From: Candidatus Thorarchaeota archaeon
GTDB taxonomy: Archaea > Asgardarchaeota > Thorarchaeia > Thorarchaeales > Thorarchaeaceae
NCBI GenBank assembly: GCA_004524445.1
Contig: SDNP01000007.1
Coordinates: forward strand, 1 to 64,000
Length of the DNA: 64,000 nt
Direction of reading: 5' to 3'
Shown: positions 20,563 through 22,441 of the stretch, piece by piece
Layout of the letters: every line of letters begins with the position of its first letter
Position numbering within the stretch: position 1 is the stretch's first letter
Position numbers and translations under genes: made by a program
Notes under the pieces: generated by a model
Database searches by the model: none
What the model saw: only the letters and a program-made list of their open reading frames with translations
Told to the model about the DNA's origin: nothing

Positions 20563-20997
20563 CTACTCGAGTAAGCCTCTATCTCGGAGCCATGGCTCTG
20601 CTACTTGGACGACTCGTTCATATAACGGTCCCACACCATCAACGCCCTCCGGCGTAATTCTGATTTTATTCATTACAACAATTACGCCAGTATCCGGGAA
20701 GTAGCGCACACCGCCAGGTGGAAATTGTTTTTCCAATTCTTTGGCGAGACCCTCGAGACTGACTTCCTTCTCTGCTACGGCGAATGAAGTTATACTGTCG
20801 CCATAGATGAAAATCTTGGGGATTTCTTCGCCCTCGCTCGGAATGACTTCAGAGAGAACAATACTCAGGGTATCTTGGTCGATCCCAACCAATGTACCTG
20901 TGTATTCCTTGCCGTTCTTCAATTCTACCGTGATGGTTGCGCCGACAACCTGTGCCATCTCTCGGTTGAAGGCTCTCATAGCTGCTACATCAGACAT
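20563..20997 (-). CDS. Sm/Lsm RNA-binding protein with C-terminal domain (SmAP3-like)
   Basis: Sm1 (ITVELKNGKEYTGTLVGID), Sm2 (IFIYGDSI) plus about 70-aa C-terminal extension. Confidence 0.85.
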   Translation of the reverse strand: MSDVAAMRAFNREMAQVVGATITVELKNGKEYTGTLVGIDQDTLSIVLSEVIPSEGEEIPKIFIYGDSITSFAVAEKEVSLEGLAKELEKQFPPGGVRYFPDTGVIVVMNKIRITPEGVDGVGPLYERVVQVAEPWLRDRGLLE

Positions 20998-21289
20998 CTT
21001 GTTTCACCTTGTAAGCTGTAAATCTGAGCTTACTCACACGGCGATTTGCTGTTGTTTTAAAACCTCTGCTCTAGCGAATTCATATCAGCCAGATGAAACG
21101 CAGAGATAGAGTCTTGCCCTTATATAATCCAAGAATGTTTTTGCTCGTGCTATTTAATCTACCCACATTTCTCTGCTAAATCAGTGCCAAATTTGTTCAC
21201 AGATGGATAAATTCAGCTATCAATTCCTGATTTATCGAATATCGGAAATTTTGTTCCTTAGTCGACACTAATTCTTGAGTTGTTTAAGA

Positions 21290-21409
21290 ATGACAGCGAA
21301 ATTTCATGAACGAACTGAATGCATTGACCCATTTGATCCCTACAATCCCGAGCCCTGGACACTGAAAGCGGTAGACCCGTTTGATCCCTACAATCCCGAG
21401 CCCTGGTGA
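21290..21409 (+). CDS. 39-aa small peptide with duplicated core: MTAKFHERTECI-DPFDPYNPEPW-TLKAV-DPFDPYNPEPW
   Basis: ATG 21290; TGA 21407-21409 immediately after the second repeat; the only difference between the two 33-nt copies is synonymous in this frame (CCA/CCG). Confidence 0.65.
   Translation: MTAKFHERTECIDPFDPYNPEPWTLKAVDPFDPYNPEPW
21326..21406 (+). repeat. 33-nt direct repeat, 2 copies, period 48
   Basis: GACCCrTTTGATCCCTACAATCCCGAGCCCTGG at 21326-21358 and 21374-21406. Confidence 0.95.
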
Positions 21410-21613
21410 AGGGCGTTTTCCACAGTCGAAGTTGAAGAGTGAGAACAAACTCTCTCAACTTCGCAACTATTTTTCTGTATCCACAACCACCGAGAAGTTT
21501 CATCTCTTGTCGTCAAGCAGAATGTTTCACTGCTGAACATTCACTGGATTTGACTGTTCCCCTAGAGAATGTGTTATTAAGCAACTCCGTTGAACTTGAA
21601 ACGAGTGGCAAAC

Positions 21614-22441
21614 ATGTCTACTGCAAAGCACTTTGCTCTGAAGTACCTGCGTGAGGAAGCCTTACCAACACCCTTCTGTGCAGGCTGCGGAAACGGCATA
21701 ATCACTGACTCATTTCTCAAAGCTGTGAAAGATCTGGGCCATGAAAATCTACGCAAATTCGCCTTCGTGTCAGGGATAGGCTGCGGAGCATGGATTCCTT
21801 CGCCTCATTTTCAAGCTGATACTCTCCACACGACTCATGGGCGAGCAGTTGCCTTTGCTACCGGCTTAAAGATGTCCCGACCAGAGCTACAAGTCGTGGT
21901 GATATCCGGAGATGGGGACTTGGCTACCATCGGTGGAAACCATCTGATTCATGCAGCTCGGCGCAATATCGATATGACAGTGATAATGAGCAATAATCAC
22001 AACTACGGCATGACTGGAGGACAAGTTAGCGCAACGACATTTACGGGCGATACAACCTCCACAACTCCATACGGCAATCCGGAGCGGCCATTTGATATAT
22101 CCCGTTTGGTGGCTGCTGCAGGGGCTAACTTTGTGGCGCGTTGGACTACTGCTCACCCAAATCAAGCTGCACGAGCAATAAAGACCGCTTTGCAGAGAGA
22201 AGGATTCTCTTTTGTCGAAATTCTGAGCCAATGCCCAACAGCATACGGACGGAGAGCCAAGATAGGGAAACCTAAAGATTTCATCGACTGGTACAAGAAG
22301 TTACCAATACGAAAAAAGGATGCACCTCTGACGTATACGATACCAACCCGGGAGAGCATAGATCTTGGCGTATTCGTAGATCGCAATGAACCTGGATTCA
22401 AGAAAGCTATTGATGCCATGACAAAGAGAGCTCAGGAATGA
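21614..22441 (+). CDS. korB: 2-oxoacid:ferredoxin oxidoreductase beta subunit
   Basis: FCAGCG, SGIGC, HTTHGRA, GDGD TPP motif, YGMTGGQ, SQCPT. Confidence 0.9.
   Translation: MSTAKHFALKYLREEALPTPFCAGCGNGIITDSFLKAVKDLGHENLRKFAFVSGIGCGAWIPSPHFQADTLHTTHGRAVAFATGLKMSRPELQVVVISGDGDLATIGGNHLIHAARRNIDMTVIMSNNHNYGMTGGQVSATTFTGDTTSTTPYGNPERPFDISRLVAAAGANFVARWTTAHPNQAARAIKTALQREGFSFVEILSQCPTAYGRRAKIGKPKDFIDWYKKLPIRKKDAPLTYTIPTRESIDLGVFVDRNEPGFKKAIDAMTKRAQE

Follow-up and report, generated by a model that had tools for sequence, protein, structure and literature searches.

Glu-Pro-Trp-tailed micro-peptides of Thorarchaeota and their synteny with a tandem Lrp-like protein

A 39-codon open reading frame (ORF) in a 64,000-nucleotide stretch of Thorarchaeota DNA (hereafter the window; contig SDNP01000007.1, positions 1 to 64,000) is a real gene, and it belongs to an undescribed family of Thorarchaeota micro-peptides composed of Pro-rich units that end in Glu-Pro-Trp (E-P-W) or Glu-Pro-Phe (E-P-F). 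Based on the selection acting on these units, the restriction of the family to one lineage, its synteny with a tandem Lrp-like protein of ~660 aa (hereafter the partner) and the agreement of cores between partner-linked and unlinked copies, we infer that the peptides are gene-encoded ligands or modulators of the partner, a reading to which we assign a probability of about 0.5.

The ORF is read on the forward strand from an ATG at 21290 to a TGA at 21407-21409, and the encoded peptide consists of a 12-residue lead, a core, a 5-residue spacer and a second core. A 33-nt direct repeat (21326-21358 and 21374-21406; period 48 nt, in frame) encodes the 11 residues DPFDPYNPEPW twice, with the TGA directly after the last Trp. 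A single synonymous mismatch (A/G at 21331/21379; CCA/CCG) separates the two copies of the repeat. The original prediction, which was made from the letters of the window, had described a hidden 39-aa ORF with two identical cores, a synonymous mismatch and a stop after Trp, and all of these were re-found in the sequence. Its placement of the ORF between SmAP3 and korB also agrees with the domain assignments of the flanking genes (LSm + Lsm_C on the - strand, and an oxidoreductase beta subunit on the + strand). Features of the locus, with the basis of each assignment in brackets, are:

20563..20997, - strand: SmAP (LSm + Lsm_C), a flanking gene outside the system (domain assignment)
21289..21425, + strand: RNA-library (metatranscriptome) fragment with adapters at both ends (contig match)
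21290..21409, + strand: 39-codon micro-gene, consisting of lead, core 1, spacer, core 2 and TGA (ORF and family membership)
21326..21358, + strand: core 1, DPFDPYNPEPW (repeat comparison)
21374..21406, + strand: core 2, repeating the 11 residues of core 1 with one synonymous base change (repeat comparison)
21424..21468, + strand: stem-loop 3' of the stop codon (folding energy)
21470..21474, + strand: T-run 3' of the stem-loop, forming a terminator-like element (sequence)
21614..22441, + strand: TPP-binding 2-oxoacid:ferredoxin oxidoreductase beta subunit (korB), outside the system (domain assignment)

The fold of 21400-21500 has an energy of -30.9 kcal/mol (z -3.5). The window copy is best read as a self-contained unit (promoter region, small ORF (sORF), hairpin/T-run) in a divergent intergenic gap; no convincing TATA/BRE was seen at the expected distance from the fragment end at 21289, and we claim no promoter. 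Six-frame scans of the rest of the genome returned no further copy of the window core, a word-indexed protein search with a 44-residue form of the ORF returned no candidate, and metagenome contigs searched with a back-translated pattern of the exact core returned nothing. Rfam, applied to 20900-21700, returned nothing beyond one chance-level row.

The original prediction had allowed that the duplication might be an assembly artefact. A DNA contig from a 2025 freshwater-sediment run of a different study spans 20903-21464 and carries both repeats without an indel, and the duplication is therefore not such an artefact. This contig derives from a related strain, in which an A>G change at 21336 replaces Asp by Gly in core 1 only, so that core identity is not absolute. 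Among RNA libraries, metatranscriptome run X5 yielded one 174-nt contig that is 100% identical over 21289-21425 and is bounded by Illumina adapter on both sides; given the adapters at both ends, it represents a fragment that begins 1 base 5' of the ATG and ends 16 bases 3' of the stop codon. This fragment weakly suggests a short, nearly leaderless transcript, as it is a single contig that may stem from one molecule or from DNA carry-over, and no other RNA contig was found over the sORF. In RNA run X4, coverage was confined to the SmAP 5' region. Separately, a salt-lake metatranscriptome contig covers 20918-21160, that is, the first ~80 nt of SmAP and ~160 nt upstream, and hints at a long SmAP 5' leader or at DNA carry-over.

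To place the ORF among its relatives, 400 genomes of the phylum (86 in the taxonomic family of the window and 314 others) were scanned for a DNA pattern of E-P-W, 9-19 codons, E-P-W and stop. The pattern occurred at 10 places in 9 of the 86 genomes and in 0 of the 314, and a reversed-control pattern occurred at 2 places. Each of the ten matches is a short ORF in which a Pro-rich unit occurs two or three times in identical form. Members of the peptide family as a whole have 12-60 codons and 1 to 4 or more Pro-rich units ending in E-P-W or E-P-F, with the stop 0-2 codons later; in some members the last E-P-W is followed by 1-2 residues or by a further tail. The most conserved element is the Glu-Pro-Trp (or Phe) at or beside the C-terminus, the rest of the unit being variable and lineage-specific. 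The peptides are hydrophilic and rich in Pro, Asp and Glu, have 0-12 residues before the first core and no signal sequence, and the shortest of them (12-15 aa) comprise Met and one core. A hairpin and T-run lie 3' of most of these sORFs (median z -3.1; 38 of 51 with z < -2), so the peptide gene looks like its own, or an attenuated, transcription unit. The window ORF shares the short length, the E-P-W units, the synonymous repeats and the stem-loop with T-run. No description of an E-P-W/F-tail family was found in the literature on Asgard/Thorarchaeota peptide systems and on RRNPP in archaea; the family is restricted to one Asgard lineage, Thorarchaeota, and is undescribed.

Selection on the units was assessed by comparing fixed nine-codon windows ending at each E-P-W/F across 24 adjacent unit pairs. 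Between adjacent units, 73 codon differences were synonymous and 10 non-synonymous, with 9 of the latter falling within two divergent genes; by codon position, 77 changes were at third positions and 16 at first or second positions. These comparisons are strong evidence, read from sequence, that the family is translated and that selection keeps the repeated units identical as protein. From the window alone such selection is invisible because its two repeats are almost identical as DNA. Variable core number and synonymous-biased change in relatives, two checks that the original prediction had put forward, were both observed, and instead of lacking a homologous sORF or breaking the frame of the repeats, relatives share the frame, start, E-P-W ends and stop.

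Among longer arrays, one partner-linked sORF (L061; G043 C100) has at least four units ending in E-P-F, with a stretch of N inside the array; short-read assemblies may have collapsed longer arrays. Of two further loci, L106 (G004 C4) and L116 (G014 C40), one carries four units in which two core types alternate (ABAB), with ends L-P-W and T-P-W, and the other carries three identical units ending in D-D-P-F followed by a fourth, divergent unit.

The same SmAP-korB gap is present in a sister species of the same genus (G001), in which SmAP is 94% identical. There a 40-codon ORF (L002:1167-1289) runs along the other strand of the gap; it has the same first three residues as the window ORF and encodes two identical 15-residue cores (IGPGDFPPDSEQEPW) with the 16-codon period of the window and a stop directly after the last Trp. 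Between its 45-nt repeats there are 9 nucleotide differences spread over 7 codons, including TCT vs AGC for Ser, and every one of them is synonymous. When the two gaps are compared (window 20998-21613 vs L002:1012-1551), only ~65 nt beside korB aligns (85%), while the flanking proteins are ~94% identical; the intergenic region has undergone complete turnover between the two species, with the micro-gene on opposite strands. A search of 40 relatives with the gap DNA gave a match only at the korB-proximal end, the remainder not being alignable as DNA. The partner gene of the sister species lies on another contig and has no adjoining sORF, from which we conclude that in the genus of the window the peptide gene moved to the SmAP-korB gap, where orientations are now opposite and the sequence is fully diverged.

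One further suggestion of the original prediction, that DPF might be the linear motif bound by the AP-2 alpha-appendage (DPF/DPW ligand motif), was rejected since DPF is not conserved: it is absent from the sister core and from most members, which have only the terminal E-P-W/F in common.

Clustering of the neighbours of the ten pattern matches placed the ~660-aa partner directly downstream and on the same strand in 6 of the 10 loci, and this protein was the only neighbour common to several genera (10 loci, up to 20 kb). A profile built for the partner found matches in 75 of the 86 genomes of the taxonomic family, with each of the 16 genera represented and frequently 2-3 copies in a single genome; in a one-genome-per-species scan, its relatives all came from MAGs labelled Thorarchaeota, apart from one labelled Promethearchaeota. 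At 50 of 72 partner loci, an sORF that finishes with, or shortly after, an E-P-W/F unit lies 115-230 nt upstream on the same strand, and 5 more loci have variant sORFs ending in T-P-W, G-P-W or D-P-F. When the sORF was strictly required to read ATG...EP[WF]-stop and to lie no more than 600 nt upstream of the partner, 35 of 71 loci qualified, rising to 45 of 71 when up to 2 trailing residues were permitted; the antisense strand, reversed sequence and out-of-frame gene interiors, used as controls, all scored 0 of 71. Where a genome carries several paralogous partner genes, a different peptide accompanies each: in one paralogue group a 15-residue peptide is nearly invariant across species, and in another the peptides change fast and are often multi-core.

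The window ORF does not occupy the position 115-230 nt upstream of a partner gene. Unlinked copies are present in three genomes besides that of the window, and in two genomes the unlinked sORF carries the core of the partner-linked copy of the same genome. One of these (G081) has the same 11-residue core in both copies, the unlinked one being a 236-nt duplication of the upstream region and sORF (78% identity), and in the other (G096) the linked copy has one core and the unlinked copy three. Searches of the 90%-complete assembly of the window with a single partner protein, with the profile and, by tblastn, with the sister-species orthologue found no partner gene, and the 12-kb region around that orthologue has no counterpart there (blastn, tblastn); the gene may have been lost or may simply not have been assembled. 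Metagenome contigs searched with the sister-species partner protein contained no relative.

Genus-specific inverted repeats (e.g., TGTAGAA-N4/5-TTCTGCA and GAAGTTAACGTTC) were seen 25-50 nt upstream of many sORF starts, at the following loci:

Inverted-repeat loci: L055, L058-L061, L064, L067, L094 (g2); L074, L087-L089, L104; L056, L057, L068, L091 (g7)

They are possible operators for the Lrp-like partner, and no clear equivalent was seen upstream of the window sORF. At two loci of another genus (L045 and L048; g5), two tandem TFB/TFIIB paralogues (Zn-ribbon and two cyclin-like repeats) precede the peptide gene and partner on the same strand, and a ~2600-aa protein is encoded convergently to the partner gene.

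The partner has no match in Pfam or NCBIfam, and a PDB sequence search with its profile gave 0 hits. A confident AlphaFold2 model (me5238ca66dfd) was computed from a 29-sequence alignment (pLDDT 85.7; pTM 0.82). Residues 320-657 of this model match the Lrp-fold siroheme decarboxylase NirDL, itself a fusion of two Lrp/AsnC-like modules (Foldseek E 7e-6, probability 1.0; Z 11.8 over 269 residues, with the next rows at ~7), and the second module of the partner also aligns with single Lrp regulators (Z 5.5-5.7). The C-terminal half is accordingly predicted, by structure only, to be a pseudo-dimer of two Lrp/AsnC-like modules, the order of a winged helix and then a RAM domain (beta-alpha-beta-beta-alpha-beta) being apparent in the model and no sequence model of Lrp/AsnC matching. 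The N-terminal half (residues 1-320), folded alone (m389837d7a1df; pLDDT 78.7), is modelled as a beta-rich domain followed by a helical domain; neither Foldseek (E <= 0.001) nor VIA (Z >= 5) returned a match for it. Its weak rows, which are at noise level, comprise catalytic domains of zincin peptidases (Z 3.8-4.9) and PH-like and SH3-like barrels, and no HExxH motif was seen in the zincin-like region. For the partner, ESM Atlas returned only sub-threshold leads, to archaeal HTH proteins (score 0.86).

A second locus in the genome of the window (C53:243-452; L143/L144) holds two tandem sORFs with the same 12-residue end (EPDLGAPSPEPF), which terminates in E-P-F. Between their cores 10 of 12 codons differ synonymously, and a GGAGG-like site lies upstream of each sORF. 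The pair comes after a conserved 40-residue small protein, which contains a hydrophobic segment and has Phe as the last residue of its Pro-rich tail, and precedes an 83-aa ORF (no Pfam match) and an MFS transporter, with no partner gene nearby. Counterparts were found on G001 C37 (L145) and G003 C46 (L146), with 91% identity in the sister species. The first 149 nt of C53 are identical to the end of C54, and both assemblies therefore break here. As these E-P-F sORFs occur at a locus free of the partner, the shared tail may serve other machinery.

In the ligand reading, the E-P-W end would act as a common anchor on the partner and the variable part of the unit would confer specificity. The RAM domains of Lrp-type proteins are known to take up small ligands at their interfaces. 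Where two or three identical units are encoded, cleavage after Trp could release several copies of the ligand, or else one multi-core chain might engage both modules of the partner at once; binding and regulation, together with any processing or export, are the inferred parts of this reading. Against it stand the genome of the window, in whose 90%-complete assembly no partner was found, the sister-species partner that has no adjoining sORF, the closest structural match of the partner, NirDL, which is an enzyme rather than a regulator, the Asp to Gly change confined to core 1 in the related strain, and the E-P-F sORFs of C53 at a locus free of the partner.

Several other explanations were weighed. 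The original prediction had likened the ORF to a multi-core RiPP precursor. In a reading of this kind, the repeated cores would be substrates modified or excised by the ~660-aa neighbour or by an unlinked enzyme. Identical cores in numbers of 1 to 4 or more agree with this, as do the residues that follow the last E-P-W in some members, which would fit trimming; the best structural match of the neighbour is an enzyme with an Lrp-like fold, and its N-terminal half bears the weak zincin-type resemblance noted above. We nevertheless consider it unlikely: many members are Met and a single core, and the shortest thus have no leader; none of the radical SAM, YcaO, ATP-grasp and peptidase families recurs as a conserved neighbour of the sORFs; and the search for co-occurring peptidases or modifying enzymes that had been proposed yielded across genera, in 10 loci of up to 20 kb, only the ~660-aa protein, which has no recognisable maturase domain and no Pfam/NCBIfam match, lacks HExxH in its zincin-like region and matches in its N-terminal half at noise level. 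An unlinked enzyme might nonetheless act on the cores. That the terminal Pro-x-Pro-aromatic sequence is a general tag, read by export, a protease or an adaptor, with the Lrp-like neighbour regulating only peptide production, is quite unlikely in our estimate. The tandem E-P-F sORFs on C53, which neighbour an MFS transporter and are remote from partner genes, would suit such a tag, and the palindromes upstream of many sORFs would fit operators, but the MFS link is seen at one locus type and no exporter or protease is conserved beside the partner-linked sORFs.

A cis-acting leader peptide, in which a nascent chain ending in Pro-Glu-Pro-Trp would halt the terminating ribosome and, acting with the hairpin/T-run, adjust read-through into the next gene, would account for the conservation of the residues directly preceding the stop and for the strong hairpin and T-run that in most loci separate the sORF from the downstream gene. 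The minimal members would fit the exit tunnel, and the same-strand downstream gene in the window is korB. It is likewise quite unlikely in our judgement, given that selection extends beyond the last four residues to the variable parts of the units, that unlinked copies share a core with a linked copy, that several members have extra residues after E-P-W and that the downstream gene differs between sister species (korB here vs SmAP there), the cassette having been inverted. Finally, the repeat might be no gene at all but a DNA-level element (e.g., a protein-binding site) or an assembly artefact. The window repeats differ at one base, and selection is not demonstrable from them; yet the same structure is present in the independent contig, relatives share the frame, start, E-P-W ends and stop but not the DNA, and the synonymous bias between units is strong, so that we give this explanation almost no weight.

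In its logic, the ligand reading comes closest to the RRNPP(A) systems of Bacillota and their phages (Rap/Phr, PlcR/PapR, Rgg/SHP, AimR/AimP). Common to both are a very small peptide gene beside the gene of a cytoplasmic receptor, specificity residing in a short C-terminal unit, some precursors with several identical or near-identical units, paralogous pairs each with its own peptide, and fast turnover of peptide sequences between lineages. Phr propeptides with tandemly duplicated pheromones are known in RRNPP(A) cassettes (PMC11343458), and pheromone repeats arise during the divergence of specificity (PMC5199041). At the level of the genes, the Thorarchaeota system differs in that it belongs to an Asgard archaeon, tandem Lrp/AsnC-like modules take the place of TPR repeats in the partner, the peptides have no secretion signal and are as short as 12 residues, and the peptide gene is upstream of the partner with its own hairpin/T-run. 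Membership of RRNPP itself was rejected: no TPR match was listed for the partner model, the partner has no Pfam match, and the peptides show neither an N-terminal secretion signal nor the character of a hydrophobic exported peptide.

With Lrp/AsnC regulators and the Lrp-fold decarboxylase NirDL/AhbAB (PDB 4ch7, 4czc), the C-terminal half of the partner shares two winged-helix and RAM modules, but the partner has no Pfam Lrp/AsnC sequence match and possesses an extra N-terminal half of ~320 residues without a fold match. To our knowledge, the ligands of the Lrp/AsnC-NirDL family are free amino acids or tetrapyrroles, and not gene-encoded peptides. Identical repeated cores in variable number are also found in multi-core RiPP and pheromone precursors (cyanobactins, plant lyciumins, fungal dikaritins), and lyciumin cores likewise end in Trp; unlike these, the Thorarchaeota family has no recognisable neighbouring maturase or protease and no conserved leader or recognition sequence. 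Regulatory arrest peptides of the TnaC type are encoded by a short sORF with its most conserved residues before the stop and a structured element before the downstream gene. The Thorarchaeota sORFs resemble them in all three respects, whereas here selection spans whole repeated units and unlinked copies, and neither the orientation nor the downstream gene is conserved.

In these genomes, genes well below the usual annotation cut-offs are under strong selection. The peptide-partner pair is compact and testable, consisting of a 10-15-residue peptide and one soluble protein, and it bears evolutionary signs of specificity: purifying selection on identical repeats, an own peptide for each paralogue, and unlinked copies that match linked ones. 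Lrp-type folds normally sense free amino acids, and here they may have been recruited for reading peptides. It is possible, though on balance doubtful, that in Thorarchaeota such Pro-rich, Trp-terminated peptides are specific signals for tandem Lrp-like regulators; this would constitute an independently evolved archaeal counterpart of bacterial peptide-receptor communication, in which multi-core and unlinked genes would boost or diversify the signal.
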